DNA from: Patescibacteria group bacterium
GTDB lineage: Bacteria; Patescibacteriota; Patescibacteriia; PEXW01
Direction: 5' to 3'
DNA length: 64,000 bases
Assembly: GCA_041665345.1 (NCBI GenBank)
Contig: JBAYJA010000005.1
Span: 2,913-66,912 of the forward strand
Shown here piece after piece: positions 29,517-59,477 of the stretch. Each line of letters opens with the position of its first letter. Positions within the stretch are counted from its first letter, which is position 1. The notes beneath the pieces are model-generated. The model was not told the DNA's origin. It saw only the letters and a program-made list of their open reading frames with translations, and did not search any database. A program made the position numbers and the translations under genes.

Positions 29517-29790
29517 AGTAGTTACGAATTACGAATACGGTTACGAATTACGAAATAGAGACACGTCACCGCTCTGAGCGGGATCCCGCCTTCTTTAGCT
29601 CAGGTGCAGAAAGTGGCGGGAAAAATACGAATGGGGAAAGATTAGATAGAAGAAGAGCTATTGTCCTTCACCCAATCCGTTCTCCCCTTACCAAGGGGAG
29701 GGGCGGAGGGATAACCCTACTGAGAAAAACCTGACCCTTAAAAGAAAGATTATTACAACTGGCGTGATCTCTACAGCTCTATGGCTTTAC
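29517..29790 (-). repeat. modular intergenic repeat, copy E1 (TTCGTAA heptad array plus G-rich modules)
   Basis: ttacgaattacgaatacggttacgaattacgaa directly abuts the gdhA ATG; atacgaatggggaaag and ccccttaccaaggggagggg modules are shared with the other copies. Confidence 0.55.
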
Positions 29791-29794
29791 GGCT

Positions 29795-30769
29795 CTACAG
29801 CTTTTTCTTCGCGCCCCAGTCAATGAAGACTGCGGGTTTCCCCTGGGATTTTTGAATATACTCAAAAGCTTTCAGTGCAGCCTTTGCGCCTTCACCCGCG
29901 GAGACAACAACCTGCTTAAACGAGATGGTGGTCACATCCCCAGCGGCAAAAATACCTGGAACACTGGTTTCACAATCTTTCGAAATGACAATTTGATTTC
30001 GCTTATCCAGCTCCAGCAAACCTTTTACCAAGTCTGGCTTTACCACATATCCAATTTCTGGGAATACTCCATCCACAGCCAAGCGCTGCACTTTTGTTGG
30101 ATCATCTGCTCTGGCAACGACTATCTCTTTTACCATTTCATCTCCAACAATCTCCAAGACGTTTGAAAAAGGAGTCAACTCAACCGTTTCCGCGGCCACC
30201 ACTTTTTGCGCCAGCGTGGCTTCGCCAACCGGGCACTCGCCCAAGCAAATGAGGTAGACTTTCGCCGCAACGTTTGAGAGTAGTAACGCTGAGTCCATGG
30301 CCGAGTTGCCGCCACCCACTACCGCCACAGTTTTCCCGCGGAATTTTTCCGCATCGGCATACGCGCTGTACGAAACGCCATGGCCAATGAGCGCATCTTC
30401 ACCCGGGACATTCATATGCTTGTGTGACAAGCCGTACGCCAGAATGACTGCACGGGCAGTGAATTGATTCCGAGCAGTGAGCACGTGGAAGAATTCATCA
30501 TCAGCTTTCTCCACTTTGCGGACTTCGTCAATTTTCACCACCGCGCCAAATTTTTCCGCCTGCTCCCGAAACAGCGTGGACAGATCTCGCCCATGGATCA
30601 TGCCCATGCCGGGGTAATTCTCAATGTGCGGCGTGGTGGCTGCCTGACCGCCAATGTCTTGGGAGATGATGAGCGTCGACAAACCCCGACGTGTCGCAAA
30701 AATGCCAGCCGTTAAACCAGCTGCTCCACCCCCAACAATGATGACGTCCAGCACTTGCTCGTCGGCCAT
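29795..30769 (-). CDS. trxB: thioredoxin-disulfide reductase
   Basis: VIIVGGGAAGLTAG FAD site, CLGEC?-type redox-active region, second GGGNSAMD NADPH site; adjacent to trxA. Confidence 0.85.
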   Translation of the reverse strand: MADEQVLDVIIVGGGAAGLTAGIFATRRGLSTLIISQDIGGQAATTPHIENYPGMGMIHGRDLSTLFREQAEKFGAVVKIDEVRKVEKADDEFFHVLTARNQFTARAVILAYGLSHKHMNVPGEDALIGHGVSYSAYADAEKFRGKTVAVVGGGNSAMDSALLLSNVAAKVYLICLGECPVGEATLAQKVVAAETVELTPFSNVLEIVGDEMVKEIVVARADDPTKVQRLAVDGVFPEIGYVVKPDLVKGLLELDKRNQIVISKDCETSVPGIFAAGDVTTISFKQVVVSAGEGAKAALKAFEYIQKSQGKPAVFIDWGAKKKL

Positions 30770-30773
30770 ATAC

Positions 30774-31097
30774 TTACATGAAGCGTTTTACTTGTTCCAG
30801 AATTGCCGGCTTCTGCTGCAAGCCCGCAGCACGCCATACTTCTTTGCCGCCTTTGAAGATGGCCAACGTTGGAATGCTCATAATGCCATACTGCTGTGCG
30901 GTGGCGGGGTTTTCATCAACATCCAATGCTCCAACAGTAGCCTTATCCCCAAGTTCCTTCGCAATTTCTTCAATTATTGGTCCCTGCACCTTGCATGGCC
31001 CGCACCAGGTAGCCCAAAAATCAACCAATACGGGTTTTGCCATTTCGCCCAGTACATCACTCTGAAAATTCTGATCTGTAAACTGTCTACCTGACAT
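30774..31097 (-). CDS. trxA: thioredoxin
   Basis: WATWCGPCK active site; 107 aa. Confidence 0.9.
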   Translation of the reverse strand: MSGRQFTDQNFQSDVLGEMAKPVLVDFWATWCGPCKVQGPIIEEIAKELGDKATVGALDVDENPATAQQYGIMSIPTLAIFKGGKEVWRAAGLQQKPAILEQVKRFM

Positions 31098-31109
31098 AGG
31101 AGTTATTCA

Positions 31110-31487
31110 TTAAGGATGAGAACGTTTTGATAGTATAGAGGGGTCTTTTGTCCTGGGCAAACCCGTTTGTTTTAGATACTTTGATGACCAGCTGGACATG
31201 GCAATGAGGACTTTGGTAAAGGCCTTGCCGCTTTGGGTAAGGCGGTACTCAACACGGGGTGGGCGTTCCGCAAACCGTTCTTGGGAAATGACCCCACAGG
31301 CAGCCAAGGTTTTTAATTTCACGGTGAGGGTGCGAGTGCTTACGGGTGCAACTGCTTGCAGTAGCTCACTGAAACGTTGGGGCGATTTTTCTCGTAAACG
31401 TTCTAAGATGACAAATGATGCCCGGTCACTAAAAGTCGTGCATAGCCGGTCTACCTGGCAAACTGGAGCTTGTTTTAATACTTTCAT
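31110..31487 (-). CDS. HxlR-family winged-helix transcriptional regulator
   Basis: C-x2-RASFVILERL...TRTLTVKLKTL...RVEYRLTQSG matches HxlR/DUF24. The promoter TTGACA-17-TACACT ends about 7 nt before the ATG, so the transcript is probably leaderless. Confidence 0.7.
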   Translation of the reverse strand: MKVLKQAPVCQVDRLCTTFSDRASFVILERLREKSPQRFSELLQAVAPVSTRTLTVKLKTLAACGVISQERFAERPPRVEYRLTQSGKAFTKVLIAMSSWSSKYLKQTGLPRTKDPSILSKRSHP

Positions 31488-31493
31488 AAGTAA

Positions 31494-31521
31494 AGTGTAA
31501 GGCGCTTCGTGTTAGGTGTCA
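31494..31521 (-). promoter_or_regulatory. sigma70-type promoter of the HxlR gene (leaderless)
   Basis: Minus strand TTGACA - 17 nt - TACACT, then 6 nt to the ATG. TTCGTAA heptads lie immediately upstream. Confidence 0.5.
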
Positions 31522-31535
31522 AGCTTGAGTTTGGA

Positions 31536-31960
31536 TCATTACGAAATACGAAAAAAGATACGAATATACGAATTACGAAATAAAGGAGATACGCCCCGCG
31601 GAGCGGGGTCCGGCTTCGCCGGAAATATACGAATATACAAATGGGGAGAGGACGGGGGTAACTCCGAGTGCGGGTCTCTGTGCCCGCAGCTCGACCCGGG
31701 ATGGATTGGAGGATGGGGAGGGTTTGGGTGTAGAGGCTTGTTAGGTTGGAAGGTTAGGGTATGGGCTTCAGAAGGACAGACCCTTTCTTCCAAACCCTAC
31801 ACCCTAACGAGCATCCATACCCTTGCCTACCTCACCGGTCACTTTCCGAGCCGGCCACCGGCCCGGAGAGTGACCGACCCAGGTTCCACCCCGGGCTCCC
31901 TCCGGGGCAGAGCCCGCCCCAGAGGGAGGGAGGACAGAAAAGCCACGCCTCGTTGCTACT
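31536..31960 (-). repeat. modular intergenic repeat, copy E2
   Basis: Heptads (ttacgaaatacgaa...atacgaattacgaa), the conserved double hairpin gatacgccccgcggagcggggtccggcttcgccgga (31585..31625), GGGGAG/GGGTTTGGGTGTAG G-rich modules, and cctaacgagcatccatacccttgc at the far end. Confidence 0.6.
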
Positions 31961-32014
31961 ATGGCTGCAAAGCCAAACAAAAAACTGCCAGCATTTCTAC
32001 TGGCAGTATAGGTG

Positions 32015-33532: not shown

Positions 33533-33591
33533 GTAAAACTCCTTTGTTGGTTTCTTTTCTTTCACCCTAAAGGTGATATCAGAAAAAAGCA

Positions 33592-33612
33592 ATTGTTCCA
33601 CGTGGAACAATC
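33592..33612. promoter_or_regulatory. palindrome AATTGTTCCACGTGGAACAAT (copy 1), about 60 nt upstream of CDS 32789..33532
   Basis: Exact copy of the palindromes at 34167 and 34442. Confidence 0.55.
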
Positions 33613-33733: not shown

Positions 33734-33869
33734 GGGGTCCCCGCGAACGTGGCGCGCAACCCCGCTACGGGGTGAGCACGCGTTTGTGGGGTAAAGCGAG
33801 GCTTCGCGCGGAGTCCGGAGTGGAGTCGTAGCAACGGCTACACGCAGGGCGGAGCGCGAAACGAGTAGC
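33734..33869 (-). repeat. tRNA-trailer element copy T5 (downstream of tRNA-Ala GGC, separated by a hairpin-rich insertion)
   Basis: Minus strand: gctactcgtttcgcgctccgccctgcgtgtagccgttgctacg...cgcgaagcctcgctttaccccacaaacgcgtgctc...gcgcgccacgttcgcggggacccc; same family as T1-T4. Confidence 0.6.
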
Positions 33870-34060
33870 TGCCCTTCGACTCCTCGTCTGACTCGTCGCT
33901 CAGGGCGCTCGACTCGAAAAATGGCTTGCCGGCCGAAGCCCGAGGAGGATCATTAGTCCTCCTACGCTCAGAAGCTTCGGCCTACGCCGACCGAAGTCGG
34001 CTCTGGCCGACGTAGGTCGGAGGACAGCCTTCGCCCTCGATAATGCTCGAGGGCGAAGGC
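33870..34060 (-). repeat. about 190-nt hairpin-rich insertion between tRNA-Ala(GGC) and trailer T5
   Basis: Contains at least four strong stem-loops, for example ccttcgccctcgagcattatcgagggcgaagg, cgtaggaggactaatgatcctcctcg and gacgagtcagacgaggagtcg. Confidence 0.45.
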
Positions 34061-34136
34061 TGGTGGACCTCAGGAGACTCGAACTCCTTACCTCTTCCAT
34101 GCCATGGAAGCGCTCTACCAGATGAGCTAGAGGCCC
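34061..34136 (-). tRNA. tRNA-Ala (anticodon GGC), CCA encoded
   Basis: Reverse complement gggcctctagctcatctggtagagcgcttccatggcatggaagaggtaaggagttcgagtctcctgaggtccacca folds as a cloverleaf; G3:U70 Ala identity pair; anticodon loop aTGGCat. Confidence 0.85.
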
Positions 34137-34166
34137 ATATTGGGCGTACTTTAACATACCTACCAT

Positions 34167-34188
34167 AATTGTTCCACGTGGAACAATT
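34167..34188. promoter_or_regulatory. palindrome AATTGTTCCACGTGGAACAATT (copy 2), about 30 nt upstream of tRNA-Ala(GGC)
   Basis: Perfect 22-bp inverted repeat with a CACGTG core. Confidence 0.55.
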
Positions 34189-34201
34189 GTAACTAATCCC
34201 T

Positions 34202-34338
34202 GGATCCCGCGAACGTGGCGCGCACCCTGAGCACAGCCGAAGGGGAGCACGCGTTCGTGGGGAAAGGGGCAACCTTGTGGAGGGTGTAGTGGGGTGGACT
34301 TGCTCTGCCACACGAAACCCGACGCAAGGATTGACCCG
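34202..34338 (-). repeat. tRNA-trailer element copy T6 (after tRNA-Ala CGC), with a diverged 5' half
   Basis: 3' half ccccacgaacgcgtgctc...gcgcgccacgttcgcgggatcc matches the family; the 5' half is diverged. Confidence 0.5.
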
Positions 34339-34412
34339 TGGTGGACCTGGGGAGAATCGAACTCCCGTCTCAGCAATGCGAATGCCGTGTTCTACCACTG
34401 AACCACAGGCCC
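34339..34412 (-). tRNA. tRNA-Ala (anticodon CGC), CCA encoded
   Basis: Reverse complement gggcctgtggttcagtggtagaacacggcattcgcattgctgagacgggagttcgattctccccaggtccacca; G3:U70; anticodon loop tTCGCat. Confidence 0.8.
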
Positions 34413-34441
34413 ATATTTGGCTTAGGTAAGCGTTATTTTCT

Positions 34442-34463
34442 AATTGTTCCACGTGGAACAATT
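34442..34463. promoter_or_regulatory. palindrome AATTGTTCCACGTGGAACAATT (copy 3), about 30 nt upstream of tRNA-Ala(CGC)
   Basis: Exact 22-bp palindrome. Confidence 0.55.
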
Positions 34464-34570
34464 AAATTTCAATAATTTGGCTTTATCCTGACCCAAAGCC
34501 ACCTTCTCTTAGCCTGGGTCAAGGGACCCAGGCCACCCACTTTTGAGCTATTCTTTAAGAGTACTAAAAT

Positions 34571-34721
34571 CTTCGGGGGTCCCCACAGATGTGGCGCGCA
34601 GTCTCCCGAGCGTAGTCGAGGGGGACGAGCACGCGTCTGTGGGGTAAAGCGAGGCTTCGTGCGACGGGCGGAGCGGATTCGGTAGCAACCGGATACGCGC
34701 AGCTCTGAGCACGAAACGAGC
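34571..34721 (-). repeat. tRNA-trailer element copy T4 (after tRNA-Arg CCU)
   Basis: Minus strand: gctcgtttcgtgctcagagctgcgcgtatccggttgctaccgaatccg...cacgaagcctcgctttaccccacagacgcgtgctc...gcgcgccacatctgtggggacccccgaag. Confidence 0.65.
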
Positions 34722-34796
34722 TGGTGCCCCCGGAGGGAATCGAACCCCCATCTCTCCCTTAGGACGGGATTGCTCAATCCATTGAGCTACAGGGGC
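34722..34796 (-). tRNA. tRNA-Arg (anticodon CCU), CCA encoded
   Basis: Reverse complement gcccctgtagctcaatggattgagcaatcccgtcctaagggagagatgggggttcgattccctccgggggcacca; cloverleaf with anticodon loop gtCCTaa. Confidence 0.75.
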
Positions 34797-35106
34797 AAAA
34801 AATCCCTTATTTTAGTTACTTATTAGAGTCGCATTATGTAAACGAGCCGCTACCCTATCGACAAAACCATTTCTATGGTCAAAGTAGAGGACTGTACCAA
34901 AAGCAACAGCGATGAGAATGAGAAGAATGTAGAGCTTCTTCAAATCCTTTTTGATATATTGTGCTTGGTCCATAGGCGTTGGTTATGCGTAAGGGATTGT
35001 ACAGATGGTTTTGGTTTTCATCAATGCCAAAAGCCCTCAGCCTTTCGTTTTCCCAGTAAATACTATACCTTGAAAGTGTCTTCCTTTTCACATTGACGAT
35101 ATTCCT

Positions 35107-37420: not shown

Positions 37421-37447
37421 AAAAAAATACCCCGTCAGTTGACGGGG
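37421..37447 (-). terminator. intrinsic terminator hairpin inside the roughly 190-nt 5' leader of the aaRS-like gene (candidate attenuator)
   Basis: Minus strand aaaagcccccgtcaactgacggggtattttttt lies about 55 nt before the ATG and about 130 nt after the TTGACA-17-TATCAT promoter. Confidence 0.45.
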
Positions 37448-37546
37448 GCTTTTGCAATAAATCCGGCACAGAGCCGGAATTTCTTCTTTTCCAGTACGTG
37501 GTCTCGCCAGTGATAATCGGTGTGGCGGGTCTGCATACTGGGGTAG

Positions 37547-37575
37547 ATGATACAGAAGCTGGGGAGAGGTGTCAA
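37547..37575 (-). promoter_or_regulatory. sigma70-type promoter of the aaRS-like gene
   Basis: Minus strand TTGACA - 17 nt - TATCAT, preceded immediately by TTCGTAA heptads. Confidence 0.5.
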
Positions 37576-37815
37576 ATAGGGTTACGAATTACGAAAAGAT
37601 ACTACGAAAATACGAATGTACGAATGGGGATACGCCCCGCGGAGCGGGGTCCGGCTCCGCCGGAAATTACGAATGGGGAGGGTGGGAATACGGGACTCAA
37701 GATTGTAGAGTGTCTCCCTCGCCCTCTGAGGGAGAGAGAGGGTTGGTTATGGTTCCCAGCGCGGGTGTCCCTGCCCGCGCTGGACTGGGGATGGTTGGAG
37801 GGTGAGGGGTAGGTA
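37570..37815 (-). repeat. modular intergenic repeat, copy E3
   Basis: gttacgaattacgaaaagatactacgaaaatacgaatgtacgaatgggg; double hairpin gatacgccccgcggagcggggtccggctccgccgga (37627..37665); G-rich modules. Confidence 0.6.
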
Positions 37816-37888
37816 AAGAAAACCCCACCTCGTGCAGAAGTGGGGTTATGAAGATTACCAACGAAAATGACTATTCGATGCATGAAGT

Positions 37889-38191
37889 TTAAGAAGCGAA
37901 ATGTTTAAAAAATTGAAAAACTATGTTCAACGCTCCGGCCATTAACCACTCGACACAAAAAATAACACCACCTTTTTGCACCCAAAGAGCTTCATCAAAC
38001 TCATCAACTTCCCTACTAACAAAGGTAATGATTCGAAAACTAAATGTTACGTAGGTCAATGTTCCAATCACACACCACCATCGCGGTTCATGGGTATAGT
38101 ACGCGGGGAAGTAAAAACCCAATAAGCAAATCATTGCGATGGTAACGATTATGCCTATAATCCACACTAGAAATTGATCTTCTTTTGGCAA
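37889..38191 (-). CDS. small membrane protein (100 aa)
   Basis: Three hydrophobic segments; terminator hairpin at 37818..37847. Confidence 0.3.
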   Translation of the reverse strand: MPKEDQFLVWIIGIIVTIAMICLLGFYFPAYYTHEPRWWCVIGTLTYVTFSFRIITFVSREVDEFDEALWVQKGGVIFCVEWLMAGALNIVFQFFKHFAS

Positions 38192-38228
38192 GATTCCTAC
38201 CTTTCAGAAATAACTCTTCTTTAAAAAA

Positions 38229-38663
38229 TTATTTCACTAATATCCTAAGGATGAGTACGGGTATGCCGAACACAATCCCTAAGACAAGCAGTGTGAGTCC
38301 AACAGCAAGCACGATATTGAAAGCAAATGCAGCGATTGGAGTTACCACAAGAACTTTCCAACTCTTTGCAAAACCTTCCCAAAAACTGTCGCCACCCTGC
38401 CATCCACCAATTTGGACAACTCCGTACATTGTAAAAATGTACAAGGCTGTCCAGTAAGGTATGTAAAACAAAGGCGCATACGGACCGAGTGCGTTTGGAT
38501 GACATGGATCCGAAGGAACGTGGATAGTGAACCCCAGAATTATGACCCCTAACCATACTGGGACAAAGCCAACAAAGAAACGGAAGCGGTAATGAGGGAA
38601 GAGGTCCTTATATAACTGGTGTAGCTGGTACAATTTTCTTCGTAAAAAAATAGGTGCTGGCAT
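38229..38663 (-). CDS. hypothetical membrane protein (144 aa)
   Basis: Four predicted transmembrane helices. Confidence 0.35.
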   Translation of the reverse strand: MPAPIFLRRKLYQLHQLYKDLFPHYRFRFFVGFVPVWLGVIILGFTIHVPSDPCHPNALGPYAPLFYIPYWTALYIFTMYGVVQIGGWQGGDSFWEGFAKSWKVLVVTPIAAFAFNIVLAVGLTLLVLGIVFGIPVLILRILVK

Positions 38664-38795
38664 GCAACCTCCTTTATTCAGTTTTCAAAGTTTTTTGTTA
38701 TTAACCAAGCAGTATATTATTGAAAGTGCATTTTGTCAATAATCTTCTTATGAAATGTTGACAAATTATCAATATTCTATATAATATATACATTA

Positions 38796-39572
38796 TTGAC
38801 GAAAATATTCGTCATCAATATGACTGAGCTGCAAACCCAATTGCGTACCCTTGGTTGGCCGGATAAGCAGATTACTGTGTACTCTGCCCTTTTGGGCTTA
38901 GGATCCGCAGGTGCGTCAGAAATTGCTGAAGGAGTGAAGCTCCCCCGGCAGACTGTCTATAGCCTTCTCTCCGAACTCCTGGAAAAAGAAGTTATCGAGC
39001 AAAGTGACCAACAAGGGGTGAAGCAGTTTGTGGCAAATCCAGACGCGTTGCTACTTCGTCTAGAGAAAGACCAGCTACAATTGCAAAAAACCAAGACCGA
39101 GTTAGCTGCAGAACTACCCAAGATTCTTGCCAAGCAACGTCGCAAACCTTCTTACCCGCAGGTGACGTACTACGAAGGGAAAGAAGGTTTGAAACGATTA
39201 TTCAACGGCATTCTCCATTTTTACCAACGTGATGGCGAAAAAGCCTTTCGGGGCTACGGCGTAAACTTCATGAAGCCTGCCCTGGGTGATTTTCTGTACA
39301 CGTTTGTGAAGAAGCGGAGTGAGTATGGAGTGGACACCAAGCTCTTCATTGGTCTGGGGCCAGATGATTTTGGGATAACTGGACCAGAGAACCAACTCCA
39401 GCGAGATATCAAGCGTCTGAACATGCCTGCGGCGAAAGCGGGGGTGTATTTGGTTGGTGATCGGGCGTACCTTTTTTCTTTTGTAGACAATGTGGGTGTC
39501 ATGGTAGAGAACCCGGCAATCGTTGAACTCCTCAAGCGTGCTTTTGATGATCATTGGAAGAAATCCAATTAA
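38796..39572 (+). CDS. TrmB-family transcriptional regulator (paralog 1)
   Basis: N-terminal winged helix (LGLGSAGASEIAEGVKLPRQTVYSLLSELLEKEVIE) plus a roughly 180-aa C-terminal domain. Palindrome TGACGAAAATATTCGTCA overlaps its start region. Confidence 0.6.
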   Translation: MTKIFVINMTELQTQLRTLGWPDKQITVYSALLGLGSAGASEIAEGVKLPRQTVYSLLSELLEKEVIEQSDQQGVKQFVANPDALLLRLEKDQLQLQKTKTELAAELPKILAKQRRKPSYPQVTYYEGKEGLKRLFNGILHFYQRDGEKAFRGYGVNFMKPALGDFLYTFVKKRSEYGVDTKLFIGLGPDDFGITGPENQLQRDIKRLNMPAAKAGVYLVGDRAYLFSFVDNVGVMVENPAIVELLKRAFDDHWKKSN

Positions 39573-39658
39573 CAAAGTGTTACTTGCTTGTTCTTGCCTT
39601 TTCTCAATAATTCTTTAGACTGCAAACAAGAGGAAAGCAAACACGGAAAGGAGAAAAA

Positions 39659-39865
39659 ATGGCTCTCAGTGATTATTGTCCCCCAGACTGGAGTTACTGC
39701 AAATGTGAATGTCATATGACGGCAAGCGATAGTTGCGGGTGCAATTGTCAATTTTGTAACGCCTGTAAGCGCTACATTGCTGGACCTTTCGAAAAACATC
39801 AGCAAGAGGTACACCCAAAAACGGTCTCTCAAAAATGCTGTTCTGGACCAATCTCCATAGTCTAG
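39659..39865 (+). CDS. Cys/His-rich small protein, paralog B of 27178..27552
   Basis: CKCECH-x6-CGCNCQFCNACKRYIAGPFEKHQQEVH, the same motif order as paralog A; 68 aa. Confidence 0.45.
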   Translation: MALSDYCPPDWSYCKCECHMTASDSCGCNCQFCNACKRYIAGPFEKHQQEVHPKTVSQKCCSGPISIV

Positions 39866-39926
39866 TTCCTCGAAGCGCCTCTCCATTGACGGAAAGGCGC
39901 TTTTTTTGTAGAATCATGGCACTCCT

Positions 39927-41918: not shown

Positions 41919-42049
41919 CGAACAGATAGAAGGTTTGGTTTTCGATAGCGGTATAGATTGAAGGCAAAGGCGAATGAATACCCGTTACCAAAACCGTCCA
42001 CCATCTACCCATACAATAATCCAAACCCAAACCTTCTACCCCTGCAACC

Positions 42050-42424
42050 ATGCCCTCCAAGCGCGTGAACCAACTCAATGCACTGCTCCAGCAAAAACTG
42101 GGCGAACTTTTTTTAACCGAAATCAACTTTGCCGCAGGGACGTTAGTGAGTATTACCCGCGTGGAAACCACGGGTGACATTCGGCACTGCAGCGTGTTCC
42201 TGTCCGTGATGCCAGAGGAGTATGGGAATGGTGTGCTCAATCTCTTGCAAAAGCGCCTGCCCTTTCTGCAGCACGAGCTCATGAAGCGGCTTACCTTGGC
42301 GCGCATTCCGTCGCTCCACTTCCGTCTGGATATCCGGGGCCAAAATGCCGCGCACATGGAAGCATTGCTGGATGAGGTGAAGAAGACGTTGCCGCCGGAG
42401 GAAGAAGTCCAACCGGAAAAGTAA
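42050..42424 (+). CDS. rbfA: ribosome-binding factor A
   Basis: 124 aa; RVNQLNALLQQKLGELF...SITRVETTGDIRHCSVFLSV matches the RbfA KH-like fold; located downstream of infB. Confidence 0.8.
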   Translation: MPSKRVNQLNALLQQKLGELFLTEINFAAGTLVSITRVETTGDIRHCSVFLSVMPEEYGNGVLNLLQKRLPFLQHELMKRLTLARIPSLHFRLDIRGQNAAHMEALLDEVKKTLPPEEEVQPEK

Positions 42425-42454
42425 ACTTATTTTTTTGAAAGGAAAAAGGCGAAT

Positions 42455-42480
42455 GCTTGTCAAAAAAGCCTAAGGTGTTC
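42455..42480. terminator. bidirectional terminator between rbfA and CDS 42505..43098
   Basis: aaagcctaaggtgttccctaggcttt hairpin with flanking A- and T-runs. Confidence 0.5.
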
Positions 42481-42504
42481 CCTAGGCTTTGCTCACTCGT
42501 TTAC

Positions 42505-43098: not shown

Positions 43099-43182
43099 TG
43101 TGTCCTCAACTTTCAGTTTGTGAACGTTCAGTATGTTTAGAGCTATCCTAGATTGCTGGGGAATGGTTTGTCAAATAAAAAA

Positions 43183-43220
43183 AAGCGCCAGGTTGTCCGG
43201 GCGCTTAGAGCTATTTTTTT
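43183..43220. terminator. terminator hairpin family copy 1 (conserved loop GGTTGTCCGGGCGC)
   Basis: aaaaaaaagcgccaggttgtccgggcgcttagagctattttttt. Confidence 0.5.
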
Positions 43221-43228
43221 GCGAGCAC

Positions 43229-43483: not shown

Positions 43484-43566
43484 ATATGACCTCCTCGTTA
43501 CTTTTGTTTTTTCACTGCTACTTTACCACCCACAAACATTGTGTCAATAAAATTGTTTGTAAGTAA

Positions 43567-43593
43567 AAAGCGCCAGGTTGTCCGGGCGCTTTT
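43567..43593. terminator. terminator hairpin family copy 2
   Basis: aaagcgccaggttgtccgggcgcttttt; 27 nt identical to copy 1. Confidence 0.5.
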
Positions 43594-45145: not shown

Positions 45146-45158
45146 AGAAAAGTGCAAT

Positions 45159-45926: not shown

Positions 45927-46041
45927 TTTTCAATCCTCTCGTTTTTGGTTTTTTATCCTTCTCCCAACCAACAATTTTATTTGCGTTCTGGGAGAAGTCC
46001 CCATGTTTTGATAAGTGATCGACAAACATGGGGGTGAATTA

Positions 46042-46629
46042 TTATTTTCTAGAGTTTGGCACTGCAGCAAATACACATTCGTGACAATGGACCGCGTTTA
46101 AGTAAAGGCTACACAACCAGGGCTTCTGATGTATCAAACGAATGTAAGGTACAATTTTTCCTGGTGAAATGCTGACAGAATTGAGAGCAAAAATTGGTCG
46201 TTCACACAGAATTTTTCGCTGCTCTCCAAAAGCAAGGAGTTCTTGGAGGTTTGCTGGACGATACCCACATTTCTCCAGTAACCATCTCACATCATCAGCA
46301 TCACCACATTCGGTGTCAAACTGTACTAGCTTCAATGTAATGGAGTGCGTGCCACCGCCGGTTCGTGGAAAGTTCACTTCATGTATTTCCGGATCGACAT
46401 TACCATATTTCCCGGCAGCGATGTATTGACCAATGGAACGATTCATATTGACTATCAGCCGAACTGAATCAATATACGCTGTGATTGAGTGTTCTGGTTC
46501 AGTAACATCTGTTAGGCCAGTGAATTCGACACCATACGTGCCAAAACGGAAGGTTGGTTTTCTTACTCGTCTCGATTTTGAAATGACGATTACTTTTTTG
46601 CGCATTGTTGTACTATGCCATCCTTTCAC
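46042..46629 (-). CDS. hypothetical protein (195 aa)
   Basis: ORF only. Confidence 0.35.
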   Translation of the reverse strand: MKGWHSTTMRKKVIVISKSRRVRKPTFRFGTYGVEFTGLTDVTEPEHSITAYIDSVRLIVNMNRSIGQYIAAGKYGNVDPEIHEVNFPRTGGGTHSITLKLVQFDTECGDADDVRWLLEKCGYRPANLQELLAFGEQRKILCERPIFALNSVSISPGKIVPYIRLIHQKPWLCSLYLNAVHCHECVFAAVPNSRK

Positions 46630-46780
46630 AATGTTTTTTCTTTTATTTCATTTTTAACAAAGAAGTATAAAGAAGAGTTTAGATATTGTCAATGCTTTAA
46701 GCAAAATATTAAAGTGGAATTGACAAAATGGCTAAAATAAGCTAAAATTGTGATATAGTATTTGTCATAATCTTCGTCAA

Positions 46781-47554
46781 ATGAACATTCAAGAGGCATT
46801 AACGCACTTTGGACTCAATGAAAAGGAGGCTGGGGTATACCTTGCTGCTCTTGCTTTAGGGAGGGCGAAAGGTCAGGAAGTTGCAAGAAATGCTGGGTTA
46901 CCACGTTCCACCACGTACAGCATTCTGGATACGCTGGTGCAGAAGAAGCTCATTCTTACCCTGGACGACCGCAAAGTGCGTGAGTATGCAGCAGAAGACC
47001 CTGACAAGTTGGTGGAACAAAGCGAAGCAGCCTACCGCACCATGAAAGCCGCGCAACCGGATTTGGCGGCGCTGTTCCGGGGGGCGAAGAACCGGCCGCG
47101 GGTGCGGTACTACGACGGGTTGCAGGCAATTAAGGGTATGTACGAGGGGATTTTGCTCCAGCGGAAGAAGGGGCTGAAAGACTACCAAGTCATTGCTTCC
47201 GAATCCGCTTTCCTTAGCCGTGATCGGGAGTGGTTTACCAATTTTGTGAAGCGCCGAGCAGCGTTTGGCATGCACTCGCGGTTAATTCTGGAAGCCAGTG
47301 AAGATACCCGGCAAAAGCAAAAAGAGGAAAAGGAGATTAATTCAGAAATCCGGATTTTGGACAACTTTTACGAACAGCGGAGCAAGGCGGGAATTTACAT
47401 TTTGCTGAAGAGTGTCATTTTTGTGGAGTACACCAAAAACCCCGTGGCCGTGGAAATGGAGAGTAAAGAACTGGTTTCCATGCACCGCATGCTGTTTGAA
47501 GCCCTGTGGAAGACTTTGCCCGCAGCTTCGCAGCCTGCGCTGCAGTCCACGTAA
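46781..47554 (+). CDS. TrmB-family transcriptional regulator (paralog 3)
   Basis: N-terminal winged helix LNEKEAGVYLAALALGRAKGQEVARNAGLPRSTTYSILDTLVQKKLI. TTGTCAA...TTGACAA inverted repeats lie upstream. Confidence 0.6.
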   Translation: MNIQEALTHFGLNEKEAGVYLAALALGRAKGQEVARNAGLPRSTTYSILDTLVQKKLILTLDDRKVREYAAEDPDKLVEQSEAAYRTMKAAQPDLAALFRGAKNRPRVRYYDGLQAIKGMYEGILLQRKKGLKDYQVIASESAFLSRDREWFTNFVKRRAAFGMHSRLILEASEDTRQKQKEEKEINSEIRILDNFYEQRSKAGIYILLKSVIFVEYTKNPVAVEMESKELVSMHRMLFEALWKTLPAASQPALQST

Positions 47555-47614
47555 GGTACTTTTTCAGAGTATAGACACTCGTTCACTTCAAGCCGTAGGC
47601 GTATACTTCACAAT

Positions 47615-48196
47615 ATGAAAAAGCTACTCTGTGTCGTTGACTACCAAAATGACTTTGTCAGCCCTGACGGGAAGGTAGCCAAGCAGCTGGGCAATGACAA
47701 GCTACTGAAAGCGCAGGCACTACTGCCAAAAATTCAGCAGCTGCTTGATGCCTGGCACAAGCGTTCAGATCCTGTGCTTTTTCTGCAGTCAGACTACAGC
47801 CTGAAAAATTACAAAGCGTCTTTTCAGGAGGGGAGGAAGAATAGTGCGTACAGCAATGCAGCAATCGTTGGCACCTGGGGGCATGCACTTTTCGGGCTGC
47901 AACCGGCTGCTTCTGATGCACGCTTGGTCAAACTGTATTTCGATGGTTTCTACCAATCTGCTTTGGAAGACACGCTTGTGAAGCAAGAAATTACCGACGT
48001 GTATTTTTGTGGCATTAATACCGATGTTTGCGTGTTCCACACGGCAATTGGTGCAATCGTCCGCGGCTATCGTTCCTACGTCATTGAGGATGCAACCGAG
48101 ACCGTTTCAAGCGCTGAGCAGAAAGCCATATTCTTGCAATACTTGAAGAACTATGTCGGCGTGCAGATCGTACCCTTACGTGATGTACTTCTATGA
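47615..48196 (+). CDS. isochorismatase-family cysteine hydrolase (nicotinamidase-like)
   Basis: LLCVVDYQNDF (catalytic Asp), K residue, and CGINTDVCV (catalytic Cys). Confidence 0.7.
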   Translation: MKKLLCVVDYQNDFVSPDGKVAKQLGNDKLLKAQALLPKIQQLLDAWHKRSDPVLFLQSDYSLKNYKASFQEGRKNSAYSNAAIVGTWGHALFGLQPAASDARLVKLYFDGFYQSALEDTLVKQEITDVYFCGINTDVCVFHTAIGAIVRGYRSYVIEDATETVSSAEQKAIFLQYLKNYVGVQIVPLRDVLL

Positions 48197-49023
48197 CTGA
48201 AAATTTCCAAGAACTGTACAACCCAGAAAACGCACCAGAGTGGAATGAAGAGAAGACCATGGAGCATGCTTCCGGGATCTGGGGCAGGGATCCAATGCTT
48301 CAATACCTCCGAGATGAAGTGATTAAGCCCGGAGATAAAGTCCTGGATATTGGCTCTGGCGCAGGGTACCCATCTGCCCGAATGGCAGAGATGGTAGGAA
48401 AAGATGGAACCGTGGTTGGCCTGGAGTACAGCAAATCTATGCTGGGCATTGCTGATGATGAAAAAGGTGAACCAGCGAGTAAGAAGTATGAGGCACTGAA
48501 GCAGCTGATGTTCATCAATGGTGATGCCACAAACATGCCCATACAAGAAAAATCTTTTGACGTTGCCACGTCTTTTATGGTGCTGCACAATTTGGAGCTT
48601 CCACAAGTGCAGAAAGTACTTCAGGAAACTGCCCGGGTTCTCAAACCTGGCGGCAAGGCAGTGTTTCTTACCATGCATCCGGATATGCTGGAGTCAGATT
48701 GGAAATTAGACTTCATGGAATATCCTGACGATGCTATTGCCGCCTACAAGGCACTGGAAGAAAAGGAGGGATTCCGATTAAGCGGGAAAGTGAAAAATGC
48801 TGGTGGGGGTGAAAAGCAGATTGGCTTGGTGGTACATACCCGGGAAAATATGCAGCAGGCCATTGCACAAGCCGGGTTAGAGCTTGCACATGAAGAAGGA
48901 TATTTTATTGATGCCGACACAGCAGCCGAAAAGTTTGGTGAAAATGCATCGCGGGTAATGCCAACCACGCCAACTTTTTGGAAATTGGAATTGGTGAAGC
49001 CGGAAAGCACTGAAGCAAGCTAA
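48193..49023 (+). CDS. class I SAM-dependent methyltransferase
   Basis: VLDIGSGAGYPSARMAE (motif I); ATGA overlap with the upstream gene. Confidence 0.6.
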   Translation: MTENFQELYNPENAPEWNEEKTMEHASGIWGRDPMLQYLRDEVIKPGDKVLDIGSGAGYPSARMAEMVGKDGTVVGLEYSKSMLGIADDEKGEPASKKYEALKQLMFINGDATNMPIQEKSFDVATSFMVLHNLELPQVQKVLQETARVLKPGGKAVFLTMHPDMLESDWKLDFMEYPDDAIAAYKALEEKEGFRLSGKVKNAGGGEKQIGLVVHTRENMQQAIAQAGLELAHEEGYFIDADTAAEKFGENASRVMPTTPTFWKLELVKPESTEAS

Positions 49024-49049
49024 TAATATGGGTGGAGTGTGGGCGGCCC

Positions 49050-51379: not shown

Positions 51380-51680
51380 TCCGCTTCGCCAAGGGTTTTG
51401 TGAGGGTTTGTGGTAGAGCAAGGGTTTGGATGCTCGTTAGGACGTTGGGTTGGGAAGGAGGGTGATACATTTTCGAAAAACACACCCAACCTTCCAACTC
51501 CACCTGGCGCTTCAACAAAACCTCTTTCCCTCTCCCTTGTTCCCTCTCCCTCAAAGGGCGAGGGAGACGTTCTGCAATCTTGTGTACCGTATTCCTATCC
51601 CTCTCCATCTTCATTCGTATCCCTTTTCGTAATTCGTAACCGGGTTGACTTTTCCCCCAAACCGCAGTATACCTTCAAGA
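51380..51680 (+). repeat. modular intergenic repeat, copy E4 (oriented toward clpP)
   Basis: gcaagggtttggatgctcgttagg...ggttgggaagg...ccctctccct...cattcgtatcccttttcgtaattcgtaa, immediately followed by the TTGACT -35 box. Confidence 0.6.
51645..51673 (+). promoter_or_regulatory. sigma70-type promoter of clpP
   Basis: TTGACT - 17 nt - TATACC; 95-nt leader before the ATG at 51769. Confidence 0.45.
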
Positions 51681-51768
51681 CGTAGATCGTGCTTCTGCCT
51701 TCTCTTCCCCTCAACCAACCCCTCCATCCATACTCGCTTCCACACCCAAACCCTTTACCCCTCCAACC

Positions 51769-52353
51769 ATGTACCTAGTCCCAACCGTCATTGAAAAATC
51801 CAACTTTGGTGAGCGTGCATACGACATCTACTCTCGCCTGCTCAAAGACCGTATCATCTTCCTAGGTGATGCCATTGACGATGGCGTTGCCAACACAGTC
51901 ATTGCGCAGTTACTGCTCTTGGAAAACCAAGACCGAGACAAGGATATTAAAATTTACCTGAACACCCCCGGCGGTTCGGTCACGGCTGGCATGGCGATTT
52001 ATGACACCATGCAGTACGTGAAACCGGACGTGAGCACCATTTGCGTGGGGATGGCTGCCAGCATGGGGGCGGTGCTCCTGGCCGGTGGCGCGAAGGGAAA
52101 GCGCTTCACTTTACCGAATGCAGAAATCCTCATTCACCAAGTTATGGGTGGGACGGAAGGTCAGGCCTCAGATATTAAAATCCGCGCGGAGCATATCTTG
52201 AAGATTAAAGACCGGCTGAACCAAATTTTGGCCAAGCACACTGGCCAGTCCGTTAAGAAAATTGAGGAAGATTCAGACCGGGATAAGTACATGTCTGCTG
52301 AGGATGCCAAAAAGTACGGCATCGTGGACAAAATAATTTCCAAGGCAAGTTGA
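51769..52353 (+). CDS. clpP: ATP-dependent Clp protease proteolytic subunit
   Basis: 194 aa; [15 protein letters not shown] (Ser nucleophile region), and the His and Asp of the catalytic triad. Confidence 0.9.
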
Positions 52354-54260
52354 TGCGACGCATACATTCCACGCTGCTCTTCCTGGGAGGAGCGCTTGGC
52401 ATTCTTTTGTCGTGCCTCATTTTTGCCGCGCCGGCCCAAGCTGCAGTTTCCGTTGAAGTCATTTCGGCCACGCAGCCAGACCCAAAGTACGCAAACACCC
52501 CTGCCAAAGATTTTGTCTCGGATGCGCCGTGGGTCCACCGGCTAGGTGCCAATGCTGACATTCCTGTCATCACCTTCATTAAAGATGCGCAATCAGACAG
52601 CGCGCTGCTGGATTACATTAGCTACACGCGGACCGATACGAACACCGAAATTATTCGGTACGACCCCAACCCAGATCTGGTTGTGAATGCATCATTCTGG
52701 GGGATTCGCGTACGCGAACTGACGCCTACCGAGGTTGGTCTAACGCCTGGCCAGACCTTGCCGCTGCGGGTGGACATTCGCTTCCGCGATCAACTCATCT
52801 GGCATACCTACAGCCAGCACTTGCAGGTGAAGATTGCTAGTCCCTGGCCATCGCTGCCTGGTTGGTACCGGGGCGATACACATTTCCACAGCGAGTTTAC
52901 GGATAACGCCTTTGAGTATGGCGGAAATTTTGATTTCAATGTGGAAGCGTCGCAGGCAATTGGCATGCAGTGGACCACGCTCACGGAGCATTCCTACGAT
53001 GTGACCGCCACCGAATGGGATCAGCTCGTTGCACGCAGCCTGGCAGCGTCCAATGCAACGTTCCGCCTCATTCCCGGCTTGGAATTTTCCGTAGATACGA
53101 ATGAGACGAACGAATCGGTGGATGATCGTATTCATGTTTTGGGTTTAGGGTTGAACAAGTGGATCGCGGGGCCGGATATAGTACCAAGCTTCAACGTCAC
53201 GGCAAACCAACCCCGCACGCTGTCCGCCGTCCTAACGGATATTACCGACGCGAACGGCGTGGCGTATGCCTCACATCCGGAGAGCGATTCGTTGCCCATC
53301 GACGTCTTTGGCTTCTTACCACCGTGGTCAAACGCGAATTACACCACCGCGCTCAGCTTCCCGGTTTTTGTGGGTCTGGAGATTTTCAACGAGCGGCCAA
53401 CCTCCGTCACGAATAGTAATGTGACCACAGACAACATGAGCCCGTTTCCTTGGACGGCAAATACCAACTGGGACGCGGAATGGCAGCGCGGCATTGTTCG
53501 GTACAATGCTTTGGTCCGCGCAAATATTTTTCGCAACATTTCTCTGCTGGGCGGTTCGGACGCGCATGGTGATGCAAATTACAAAGTCTTCAACGCAAAT
53601 GGCGCCTTTGACGTGGCGGCGAATGAGACGGCTTCCGGAAAAGTGCACACGGTTGTTCCATTGCCTGGTGGTCTGACGCAAACCGGGATTATGGACGCCT
53701 TACGCAATGGTCGAGGCATCGTTTCTGATGGTCCGCTGGTTATACCCGAAATTCGTCTTGGGAGTACAACACTCGCGCAGGTGGGGGATCGAATTACTTT
53801 TCAGCCAACCGCAAATGTACACGTACGCTCGCTTTCCAGCGTAGAGTTTGGGAACCTCAGCACCCTTACCCTACACGTCCTTTCCCCTGGTACGGAGGCG
53901 CATCAGGTTGTACCGCTCACCGGCCTGGATCAAACGTTCACGCGGACACTCGCCGATCTTAACGTTGCTCCACCTTTTGCCGTGTGGGTAGAGGCACGTA
54001 CGACCCTTGGTCATCGAAGTTTTAGTAATCCCATTTGGCTCAATGGCCCAATGCTCTGTGGTGATGCAGATGGAGATGGCAAAATTTCTATTGGAGACGC
54101 GGTGAATATTATTAACTATATCTTCGCCAATGGCACCACCCCGGTTTCCGGTGACCCAAATAACGATGGCCAAACGGATATTGGCGATGCGGTGTACCTC
54201 ATTAATTACATTTTTGGAGGGGGTCCCGCCCCTACCTGCAGTCAGCAAAAGCGAAAGTAA
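52350..54260 (+). CDS. secreted PHP-family metallophosphoesterase with C-terminal tandem dockerin repeats
   Basis: Signal peptide; PHP motifs [20 protein letters not shown]. The C-terminus [23 protein letters not shown]...[21 protein letters not shown] is two dockerin type-I calcium-binding repeats. Confidence 0.6.
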
Positions 54261-57700: not shown

Positions 57701-57720
57701 ATTTTCTTCCATAATGTAAA

Positions 57721-57757
57721 CCGCCCTTGTGGACATACAAGGGCGGAGTTTTGTTTT
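57721..57757 (+). terminator. terminator after hup
   Basis: ccgcccttgtggacatacaagggcgg followed by a T-run. Confidence 0.65.
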
Positions 57758-58060
57758 AAAGTGTGCATGCTTGGAAACACTATCCGTATTGAATTTCGTA
57801 GAGCAACGCGCCAATCAACCAAGTAACAAAAATAATTCCCACAGAAGTTTCAAAGAGCTCATTTGCGCGGAGTGTATTCCAACTCAGAGAACCACCAATC
57901 AGGACAATAACTGTCCAAGGCAGGAAAAAATGCCACCGTTTGTGCGCCATTTTCAACTCTCACTTTTTTAAAGTTTCTACTATTCCAAGCATACCAATGA
58001 GTCTGGAAGCAGTCAAAAAAGAAACATGAAAAGCCCCGGCCATGTGGTCGGGGCGTTGTA

Positions 58061-58429
58061 TTAGCGTGCGGGTTGTATGAACTTCGGATACTGTGCACTC
58101 AGCGACATGTAGTCATCCTCTGCATCCTGGAGTTGGCAGGCGCAGCTCTCTAAATCCCCATTGGTAAAGGCGGAAAAACTCAGTGCTAACTTTGCCTGGC
58201 AGGAAATCCGGTACGTGTCTGCTGGGAGTGATTGCACGAGATAGTGTACCCATGCCAACCGAAGGAGAAGAATTTTTGCGATTTTTCGGGGACGCTTTGC
58301 CAGGGAATGTGCGGTGTTGCCAAAATGGTCTTTTGCGGTTTTCTCAAGTGCTTGTAACTCAGCTTTTTGCTGCTGGTTCAGCGTTGTGTTTATAGACACA
58401 TCAGCCTCCTCGTCAGTGTGTGTAGTCAT
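58061..58429 (-). CDS. hypothetical protein (122 aa from internal ATG)
   Basis: ORF 58061..58534; start moved to MTTHTDEE to avoid overlap with the VKOR promoter region. Confidence 0.3.
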   Translation of the reverse strand: MTTHTDEEADVSINTTLNQQQKAELQALEKTAKDHFGNTAHSLAKRPRKIAKILLLRLAWVHYLVQSLPADTYRISCQAKLALSFSAFTNGDLESCACQLQDAEDDYMSLSAQYPKFIQPAR

Positions 58430-58499
58430 TGTACATGACCACTGGAGTGCGGCAAGCGCCTTGGCGGATGGTATTTTCCCGAGTACTATAACAGCACCT

Positions 58500-58967
58500 A
58501 TGTCGACCCGAACCCGCCTGCTCACAATCGCCATTCTGTCCCTTGCTGGGATTGCTGTTTCCGCTTACGCCCTGAAGCTCCACTATTCCGTGGAACCTTC
58601 TACGTTTTGCAACTTCAACGCAACCTTCAACTGCGATGTGGTAAATAAGAGTTGGGCCAGCCAAATTGCCGGGGTGCCGGTTGCTTTGCTTGGGATCATT
58701 GGGTATGCCCTTATGCTGGTCGTTAGTCTCTGGTTGCTGCTAATGAAAAAACTGCCCACCCTGGCGTGGGGCGGGCTGGCGCTGGCAAGTCTTGGCGGGC
58801 TGGGCTTTTCTTTGTTTCTGACAGGTGTGGAAATTTTTGACCTGAAAACGTTTTGCGTGCTGTGCTTAGGTTCGCAAGTAGTTATGCTGGCAATCGCCTT
58901 GCTGGTGTGGACCAGTGTGGAGGCGCGTCATTCCTTCCGCTCCTGGTTCTTCTCCTCAGCTTCCTGA
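58500..58967 (+). CDS. vitamin K epoxide reductase (VKOR) family protein
   Basis: Loop cysteines FCNFNATFNC and redox CVLC in a transmembrane helix. Confidence 0.7.
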   Translation: MSTRTRLLTIAILSLAGIAVSAYALKLHYSVEPSTFCNFNATFNCDVVNKSWASQIAGVPVALLGIIGYALMLVVSLWLLLMKKLPTLAWGGLALASLGGLGFSLFLTGVEIFDLKTFCVLCLGSQVVMLAIALLVWTSVEARHSFRSWFFSSAS

Positions 58968-59182
58968 GCACCAAGTTTTGCCAATCGCATTGTCAGCCAG
59001 ACAACAACAACGGTAACAATGATTGCATAGCCAAACTTGGCCACGAGGCCACTTGCGGTGCCAAAAATCCTGGCGAACAAGTCTTTCACCGCCTCATTCC
59101 AGGCTAACGCCGCTATCAGACCCAGGGCTCCAGTAATGAGCGTTCGGATCTGCTCTGCAACGGCTTTGGTCGTCTTTGGCAT
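58928..59182 (-). CDS. small membrane protein (84 aa)
   Basis: Two hydrophobic helices; convergent with VKOR and overlaps it by 40 nt. Confidence 0.35.
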   Translation of the reverse strand: MPKTTKAVAEQIRTLITGALGLIAALAWNEAVKDLFARIFGTASGLVAKFGYAIIVTVVVVWLTMRLAKLGAQEAEEKNQERKE

Positions 59183-59212
59183 ATGTGAAGTATATCATGG
59201 ACAGGATGAGGA

Positions 59213-59455
59213 GTGCGGCAAGGGTTTGGATGCTCGTTAGGGTTTAGGGTATGGAAGGGGGGAGATTTTCTTGGAGGTTGCACCAATCTTTCGTCACGAA
59301 GGCAAGCTTCTCCTGGTAAGCATTACCCCTCCGCACCTCCCCTTAGTAAAGGGGAGGACGGGTTTTGTGGTGAAAGCTCAAGACTCTTCCTATTCGTAAT
59401 TCGTACTTTCGTAGCATCTATTCGTATTTCGTAACTGTATTCGTATATTTGACGA
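59213..59455 (+). repeat. modular intergenic repeat, copy E5 (oriented toward pilT)
   Basis: gcaagggtttggatgctcgttagggtttagggtatggaagg...cccctccgcacctccccttagtaaaggggagg...ctattcgtaattcgtactttcgtagcatctattcgtatttcgtaactgtattcgtat, abutting the TTGACG -35 box. Confidence 0.6.
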
Positions 59456-59477
59456 AAGTGAAAAAACATGCTAGAAT
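59449..59477 (+). promoter_or_regulatory. sigma70-type promoter of pilT
   Basis: TTGACG - 17 nt - TAGAAT. Confidence 0.5.

Follow-up and report, generated by a model that had tools for sequence, protein, structure and literature searches.

A modular intergenic repeat family upstream of promoters in a Kerfeldbacteria-like Patescibacteria genome

Five intergenic regions in a 64,000-nucleotide (nt) stretch of Patescibacteria DNA (contig JBAYJA010000005.1, positions 2,913 to 66,912; the whole stretch is called the window here) carry copies of a modular repeat, E1 to E5, whose blocks of TTCGTA hexamers face gdhA, an hxlR gene, the leader of an aminoacyl-tRNA synthetase (aaRS)-like gene, clpP, and pilT, respectively. 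We lean slightly toward the view that E1 to E5 are a lineage-specific, noncoding, nonautonomous mosaic repeat of the same general kind as bacterial interspersed mosaic elements (BIMEs), BOX elements, and miniature inverted-repeat transposable elements (MITEs). Aligned sites from sister lineages show that the E repeat did not supply the promoters next to E3, E4, and E5. The initial annotation had raised the possibility of promoter delivery by a mobile element, and at these three sites that proposal fails: the full promoter, including the −35 box, is present in relatives without E, so the promoters are older than the repeat.

RESULTS

Relationship and module order of the five copies

Each region was compared with the window by BLAST, and the five were placed in a multiple alignment. 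All were present where the initial annotation had located them, and they were related to one another. BLAST joined E2 to E3 (97 nt, 84.5% identity, E = 8e-19), E3 to E4 (68 nt, 85%, E = 1e-14), E2 to E4 (115 nt, 71%, E = 4e-13), E2 to E5 (41 nt, 93%, E = 3e-10), E4 to E5 (49 nt, 84%, E = 2e-9), and E1 to E5 (93 nt, 70%, E = 1e-7). The copies (n = 5) are 235 to 300 nt long and noncoding; the only open reading frame (ORF) called over any of them, a 199-amino-acid (aa) ORF across E2, matched only itself among 5.8 billion proteins. Independent ENA and JGI assemblies contain identical E copies, which argues against assembly artifacts. Logan short-read contigs end inside E1 (29550 and 29563), E2 (31568), and E4 (51536), as is expected of repeats.

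The modules are collinear in the multiple alignment, with one order and orientation in all five copies, as in the fixed order of BOX elements. Toward the downstream gene, this order is an optional G-rich unit, a GC hairpin (M5), M2 or M3, a double hairpin (M4), and the TTCGTA block. The G-rich unit (~50 nt) is confined to E2, E4, and E5, and it is only there that we found the start GCAAGGGTWTGGATGCTCGTTAGG, one variant of the unit, which the initial annotation had given to every copy. M5 is present in E2 and E3; M2 (E3 and E4) and M3 (E1 and E5) alternate; and M4, with one TTCGTA ahead of it, is limited to E1, E2, and E3. The double hairpins of E2 and E3 are near-identical in the alignment, as previously noted, while that of E1 (M4′) has a different sequence with both stems kept. 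Module A, the G-rich unit, is 84 to 93% identical between copies, the TTCGTA block is in all five, and the interiors vary. Orientation toward the downstream gene, claimed for the whole family, is informative for E1 to E3 only, because E4 and E5 both lie between divergent genes.

The hexamer TTCGTA, not the heptad TTCGTAA, is the real unit of the block. Instead of the 3 to 7 tandem heptads described initially, exact heptads number only 2 to 4 per copy and hexamers 3 to 6. Both are far more frequent in the window than expected (TTCGTAA, 22 observed versus 6.0 expected; TTCGTA, 65 versus 18.7), and no shuffle reached either count; 26 of the 65 hexamers lie inside the five E regions, on the strand that faces the next gene. 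Three units are followed, after a step of 12 to 13 nt, by the pair TTCGTAWTTCGTAAC (spacings of 7/8, 8, 12/13, and 7 nt). This fixed spacing indicates a homologous sequence block rather than a variable tandem array.

E1 (29517..29794, minus strand) fills the interval between the trxB stop codon (29795) and the gdhA ATG (29516). Its TTCGTA block (29519-29561) runs to 5 nt before that ATG and is preceded by the divergent double hairpin M4′ (29564-29638), a distal TTCGTA (29626-29631), and M3 (29666-29761), which is common to E5; E1 has no G-rich start module and no recognizable promoter. The E2 core (31536..31834, minus) comprises the TTCGTA block (31537-31579), M4 (31588-31639), M5 (~31660-31692), and an inverted pair of G-rich units (31715-31769, plus; 31779-31832, minus), the second of which is module A. 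Beyond the core is an E2-specific GC-rich stretch (31835..31975, minus) that occurs nowhere else in the window; it forms two very stable hairpins and lies just downstream of the intrinsic terminator of a 69-aa gene (32007-31984). E3 (37581..37815, minus) contains the TTCGTA block (37581-37625), M4 (37629-37679), M2 (37675-37743), which is common to E4, and M5 (~37755-37785), together with a C-rich stretch.

The remaining two copies are on the plus strand. In E4 (51405..51644), a G-rich unit (51415-51463) is paired with an incomplete inverted copy (~51480-51506), and M2 (51537-51608) and a shortened TTCGTA block (51612-51643) follow. E5 (59211..59446, ~236 nt) is placed between the extended −10 promoter of a DUF5654 gene and the −35 box of a small ORF (sORF)-pilT unit, and it carries a G-rich unit (59212-59263), M3 (59276-59372), and the TTCGTA block (59392-59446).

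Within-genome copies were surveyed over 67.6 kb of one genome, made up of the window and an extra 3 kb of the same contig (L094). No E copy was found in that 3 kb, and hidden Markov models (HMMs) for the TTCGTA block, M2, M3, and M4 found no further copies in the window. A pattern for the 5′ module, AGGGTNTGGATGCTCGTTAGG, had no match in 185,579 GTDB species genomes and a single one in JGI metagenome contigs, a chance match inside an unrelated coding region. A literature search for a TTCGTAA or TTACGAA repeat found no papers.

Promoters adjoining the copies

As the initial annotation had proposed, −35 and −10 boxes with a 17-nt spacer follow four of the copies; those at E2, E3, and E5 were recovered by an independent sigma-70-like scan, and that at E4 was read from the sequence. 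The promoter-like site next to E2 (31494..31522, minus; TTGACA-17-TACACT) leaves only 6 nt to the hxlR ATG (31487), so that the mRNA would be leaderless. The promoter next to E3 (37547..37575, minus; TTGACA-17-TATCAT) does not serve the aaRS-like gene directly. It serves a near-leaderless 33-aa sORF (37536-37435, minus; MQTRHTDYHWRDHVLEKKKF...). Two terminator hairpins (37478-37430) close this sORF, and the 366-aa class II aaRS-like gene, which has its own Shine-Dalgarno sequence, comes after them. E4 adjoins the clpP promoter (51645..51673, plus; TTGACT-17-TATACC), and E5 adjoins a TG-extended promoter (59449..59477, plus; TTGACG-17-TAGAAT) for a 50-aa sORF (59501-59653) and pilT. Similarity between copies stops at the −35 box, where E2 and E3 share only TTGACACCT and diverge beyond.

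Leaderless mRNAs appear to be common here: hxlR (31487), the 33-aa sORF (37536), and the DUF5654 gene (59182), all on the minus strand, start 6 to 10 nt after a −10 box. Other genes (one with its start at 51301 and the aaRS-like gene) carry clear GGAGG sites.

Canonical intrinsic terminators of the upstream genes precede E2 (32007-31984) and E3 (37847-37821), and E4 and E5 are between divergent genes and promoters, so that four of the five copies are probably untranscribed. E1, which separates codirectional genes with no terminator, may be transcribed.

Comparison with sister lineages

Relatives were picked by a protein search with ClpP, and the contigs of the closest ones were compared with the window. 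Locus L087 has a ClpP 98% identical to that of the window and syntenic genes of 78 to 90% nucleotide identity; L092, L091, and L093 have ClpP proteins 98 to 99% identical and ~84% nucleotide identity; and L088, L089, and L090 have ClpP proteins 96% and 92% identical. NCBI labels the ClpP of the window as that of a Patescibacteria bacterium, and the nearest named relatives are "Candidatus Kerfeldbacteria" and Parcubacteria; the host is described here as a Kerfeldbacteria-like member of the Patescibacteria. Other assemblies of the same species are 99.9 to 100% identical to the window and hence uninformative for strain comparison. The comparison covers the sites of E3, E4, and E5. No TTCGTA cluster and no E module were found in the relatives L087 to L093, including ~62 kb from two sister lineages, and the other Patescibacteria loci that were compared had no arrays or E modules either.

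Homology with L087 and L092 resumes at window positions 51644, 59447, and 37580, and the first nucleotides of the corresponding −35 boxes are 51645, 59449, and, on the minus strand, 37575; homology thus sets in at, or no more than 6 nt from, each of three −35 boxes. Promoters without E are seen at all three sites in L087 and L092 and, at the clpP site, also in L091 and L093. E4 is absent from L087, L092, and L091; the L093 contig has its start only shortly before the −35 box and is uninformative on E4. In all four, the clpP promoter hexamers are identical to those of the window, with 0 to 5 changes in the spacer. The aaRS-like promoter, the 33-aa sORF, and both terminators are kept in L087, which lacks E3. 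At E5, the sORF-pilT promoter and leader (59448-59520) show one mismatch to L087 and few to L092. E5 itself is a discrete indel of ~236 nt, for which L087 and L092 have 14 to 16 nt at the empty site. These data support a dispersed, modular intergenic repeat family, as first described, of which at least one copy (E5) is an indel relative to two sister lineages.

Two leader regions stood out in the same alignments. The promoter, leader, and start of the pilT sORF (59447-59653, plus) are far better conserved (1 mismatch in ~73 nt to L087) than the surrounding genes (78 to 90%), which points to strong constraint on this regulatory region. The 33-aa sORF unit (37430-37575, minus) is ~90% conserved in L087 and could be a leader/attenuator or a small gene.

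E3 forms the last 235 nt, at one edge, of a window-specific segment of 2.3 kb (37581-39885); two genes for small membrane proteins, a TrmB-like gene, and a Cys-rich sORF are also in it. Two −35 boxes, those of the aaRS-leader and infB promoters, stand back to back and enclose this segment exactly; in L087 they are ~36 nt apart. Since a gene cassette that is not E is also bounded by −35 boxes, abutting a −35 box is the look of any tolerated insertion. We considered targeted insertion at TTGAC but did not adopt it: the 2.3-kb cassette shows the same pattern, and the 14- to 36-nt spacers at empty sites are too diverged for insertion points to be placed at nucleotide level. As read from these alignments, conserved sequence in these genomes sets in with the −35 box, and all that precedes it can be replaced. 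The general lesson is that a repeat beside a promoter is no evidence of a promoter carried by the repeat.

The G-rich unit as a separate repeat

The fragments of the G-rich module that had been reported near 14010 and at ~41930-42050 are real and belong to the same family, as judged with an HMM built from eight copies. The first is a solitary unit (14009..14061, plus) between two plus-strand genes. The second is an inverted pair (41924..42040) with 38-nt arms and a 36-nt spacer, between infB and rbfA, and it is kept at the same site in L087. Together with the E2 pair (31715-31832), inverted doublets of the unit therefore occur at two sites. A further, separate copy is found in the clpP 5′ untranslated region (UTR) (51683..51758, minus; HMM match, 51706-51758), where it is C rich on the sense strand. 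This copy is present in the window and L087 and absent from L092, L091, and L093, which indicates an independent small indel, older than the E copies. By this distribution, the G-rich unit is an older, separate small repeat. A G-quadruplex role for the G-rich modules was dropped, as the window has 6 motifs versus 5.7 in shuffled sequence, with no concentration of them in the G-rich units.

The clpP gene has no Shine-Dalgarno sequence, and two copies of CCCCTCC are found in its C-rich leader (51674-51771, plus). The G-rich-unit insertion, which is missing in L092, L091, and L093, adds ~60 to 70 nt to this leader in the window and L087.

DISCUSSION

A proposed lineage-specific mosaic repeat

The properties of E match those of short dispersed repeats in several respects. 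Like MITEs, the copies are small, noncoding, multicopy, and polymorphic for presence or absence, E5 being absent in two sister lineages. They are also extragenic and hairpin rich, and inverted doublets of the G-rich unit at two sites recall those of repetitive extragenic palindromic (REP) sequences termed REPINs; however, no single palindromic core is common to all of the copies. On this account the copies would have arisen after the split from the nearest sampled relatives or would have been lost in those relatives. They would persist where a compact genome tolerates extra DNA, that is, in the untranscribed gap that extends from a terminator or divergent promoter to the next −35 box. The G-rich 5′ end and the TTCGTA 3′ end may be cis sites for a trans-acting recombinase, transposase, or DNA-binding protein, and such a protein, encoded elsewhere, would copy or maintain the element. 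Any effect on a neighboring promoter would then be a side effect of an AT-rich block at about −40 to −100.

Several observations weigh against this account. The copies compared number only five, from 67.6 kb. E has no terminal inverted repeats: the ends of E5, GGAGTGCGGCAAGGG... and ...GTATTCGTATA, are unrelated, and folding and inverted-repeat searches gave no terminal pairing beyond weak G-U pairs. The target-site duplication that might be expected was not seen, in that no direct repeat flanks E5 relative to the empty sites of L087 and L092, although this is the sole clean junction compared and its flanking spacer has diverged. Pfam scans of ~30 window proteins (20 small or unknown and 10 flanking) identified no transposase, no REP-associated tyrosine transposase (RAYT), and no other mobilizing gene. 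Mobility is deduced from one indel and from similarity within the genome, and the polarity of that indel (gain here versus loss in the relatives) is assigned provisionally, by parsimony, from two sister lineages only. E3 and E4 are at the edges of larger strain-specific segments and thus may have come by cassette recombination. Lastly, the fixed multihexamer block looks like a protein-binding array.

If E is a mosaic repeat, it would be a young family whose copies last only in the short space before the −35 boxes of a compact candidate phyla radiation (CPR) genome. Dispersed repeats appear to have been little described in the tiny, gene-dense genomes of Patescibacteria. E would belong to a familiar class of elements, found here in an unusual host, and is of modest interest, unless the TTCGTA block is a functional binding array. 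Through conservation alone, the comparison of sister species also locates several promoters, leader sORFs, and leaderless starts in an uncultivated lineage.

Alternative explanations

The alternative that fares best, though we regard it as unlikely, is that the TTCGTA block is an operator or activator array at which a small DNA-binding protein, for instance a ribbon-helix-helix (RHH) protein with one dimer per 7- to 8-bp unit (as known for omega of pSM19035 and MetJ), or a TrmB-like regulator would bind cooperatively near the −35 box. The genes gdhA, hxlR, clpP, and pilT and the aaRS-like leader would then be coregulated, with the repeat as a vehicle spreading the regulon, and so this proposal is compatible with a mosaic repeat. 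If the block is a true protein-binding array, it would exemplify regulon growth by repeat spread. Direct repeats at 7- to 8-bp spacing in a conserved 3+2 layout in every copy speak for such an array, as does the position of the block in four copies, where the last hexamer is 9, 12, 13, and 23 nt from the −35 box. The proximal TTCGTA pairs start 19, 20, 28, and 30 nt ahead of the −35 box, which sets them about a turn of the helix apart. RHH proteins provide a precedent in 7-bp heptad arrays that overlap promoters (PMC9499535). Among the scanned window proteins, the only candidate binders are three TrmB-like winged helix-turn-helix (wHTH) proteins, two of them encoded in window-specific segments; the Pfam scans also gave an HxlR protein.

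There is also evidence on the other side. Relatives that lack the block keep the promoters, presumably in active form. Each block is accompanied by ~200 nt of unrelated hairpin and G-rich modules, which would be superfluous for a binding site. Only pairs of units are strictly contiguous heptads, all units point in one direction, the distance of the last hexamer from the −35 box is not constant, and the E1 block has no adjoining promoter. Dimers of wHTH proteins normally read palindromes, and the scan of 20 small or unknown window proteins gave no RHH protein. A CtsR-like heptad operator at clpP was rejected, the sequence being unlike the consensus (A/G)GTCAAA. The three TrmB-like winged-helix genes (38796-39572, 44309-45115, and 46781-47554, plus) are within 9 kb of one another, and the first and third are absent from L087.

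It is also conceivable, but improbable, that the E copies are recombination scars, that is, ends of strain-specific cassettes spread through short intergenic repeats and not by transposition of their own. E3 as the terminal 235 nt of the 2.3-kb segment fits this idea, as does E4, which ends a 0.67- to 1.6-kb segment missing from L092 and L087, and another short hairpin repeat (at 43180, 43565, and 45115) is likewise at cassette junctions. E5, in contrast, is a stand-alone indel with no gene attached, and the other ends of the cassettes are without E modules. About equally doubtful is a bolder form of the mobile-element idea, in which E would be a promoter-proximal, site-directed element homing just upstream of sigma-70 −35 boxes, its block bound by a trans-acting recombinase or RHH-type protein, so that gdhA, hxlR, clpP, pilT, and the aaRS-like leader would come under one DNA-binding protein. 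Were this true, a selfish repeat would be assembling a regulon in a reduced CPR genome.

We think it very unlikely that the E regions act as structured RNA, in the form of long 5′ leaders, 3′-UTR stabilizers, or small RNAs. Their folds are hairpin rich and beat shuffles in four of the five copies (z of −2.2 to −5.2; E2, 31530-31975, z = −5.2), and E1 may be transcribed in the manner of REP/BIME and BOX sequences inside operons. Against this, E4 folds no better than shuffles (z = −0.9), E2 and E3 come after terminators and before the next promoter, and E4 and E5 separate divergent promoters. With Rfam covariance models, only six tRNAs in the window reached the gathering score, and nothing matched over the E regions.

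Scarcely credible, finally, is a promoter-delivering element whose outward promoter or −35 box activates the gene that it has landed before: good sigma-70-like sites follow four copies, E2 and E3 share their junction sequence, the E2 promoter is outside the comparison with relatives, and putative mobile promoters are documented in many genomes (PMC3488235), but the E3, E4, and E5 promoters are complete at E-less sites in sister lineages, the similarity between copies excludes the spacer and the −10 box, and E1 has no promoter.

Other repeats and genes in the window

The six tRNA genes are at 60801-61470 (plus) and 33734-34800 (minus) and specify Arg-TCG, Val-TAC, and Ala-TGC and Ala-GGC, Ala-CGC, and Arg-CCT. 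Each is followed by a conserved, hairpin-rich spacer of ~150 nt, giving tRNA-plus-spacer units of ~220 nt with 80 to 93% identity. Further copies of this unit are present in L094 (14966-15584, at the contig end) and in the sister species L087 (5-336 and 17019-17523). A JGI strain (L002) departs from the window right after tRNA-Val (61110). The perfect 22-nt palindrome AATTGTTCCACGTGGAACAATT occurs three times (33590-33611, 34167-34188, and 34442-34464); two of its copies are ~30 nt upstream of tRNA-Ala genes, and the palindrome could be an operator or promoter element.

The 27-nt terminator-like hairpin repeat AAAAAGCGCCAGGTTGTCCGGGCGCTT is found at 43180-43206, 43565-43591, and 45115-45141. 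It marks junctions of segments that the window has and L087 lacks (42408-43564 and 45118-49046), and L087 has a single copy, which suggests that cassettes have been gained or lost when short intergenic repeats recombined. A direct repeat of ~100 nt (7251-7348 and 7894-7990; 80 to 86% identity) flanks a 149-aa ORF (7462-7911). A gene that overlaps the clpP stop codon (52350-54260, plus) encodes a 635-aa protein with only a faint dockerin match; L092, L091, and L093 have this gene, but L087 does not, and there the RNase Y gene directly follows clpP.

Comparison with known systems

Among operators built of direct units, the E block resembles those of RHH proteins in having several 7- to 8-bp units side by side at a promoter. 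MetJ met boxes and the CtsR heptad repeat are other arrays of direct units. The omega/ParB system of pSM19035 uses 5′-WATCACW-3′ heptads in 7 to 10 contiguous units of mixed orientation that overlap the promoter, and it requires at least 4 contiguous 7-bp units (PMC9499535). The E block differs in its sequence, its 3 to 6 units in one orientation, its 12- to 13-nt gaps, and its position upstream of the −35 box; it has no run of four gapless 7-bp units, only pairs being contiguous at 7 bp.

The Correia/NEMIS elements of Neisseria, which are MITEs, and insertion sequence ends that make hybrid promoters are like E in being small, noncoding, placed beside promoters of unrelated genes, and polymorphic for insertion. 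Correia elements have terminal inverted repeats, a TA duplication, and their own −35 and −10 boxes, whereas E has no inverted termini, shows no target duplication at the one clean junction, and adjoins preexisting promoters. The putative mobile promoters of Matus-Garcia et al. (2012) are 50- to 100-nt stretches, at least 80% identical, directly upstream of nonhomologous genes of one genome (PMC3488235). E2 and E3 (97 nt, 84.5%) share this feature; the stretch that they share, however, stops at the −35 box and excludes the promoter.

BOX elements of Streptococcus pneumoniae (boxA-boxB(n)-boxC), bcr1, and enterobacterial repetitive intergenic consensus (ERIC) sequences share with E a fixed order, variable inner modules, and a length of ~100 to 400 nt. 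Like E, BOX-type repeats are intergenic, near promoters, and capable of stable secondary structure. BOX elements have related terminal modules, boxA and boxC, which pair together, and the elements are commonly transcribed, whereas the ends of E are mutually unrelated and most copies are in apparently untranscribed DNA.

The BIME and REP/REPIN sequences of proteobacteria differ from E in host and show no sequence similarity to it, and E, in its CPR genome, is built asymmetrically, from a G-rich 5′ end to a TTCGTA 3′ end, rather than around one palindromic REP unit. What the two have in common is that they are short extragenic mosaics with GC hairpins and some inverted pairs, lineage specific and present or absent between close relatives, and the G-rich pairs of the E family (41924-42040 and 31715-31832) resemble REPIN doublets.

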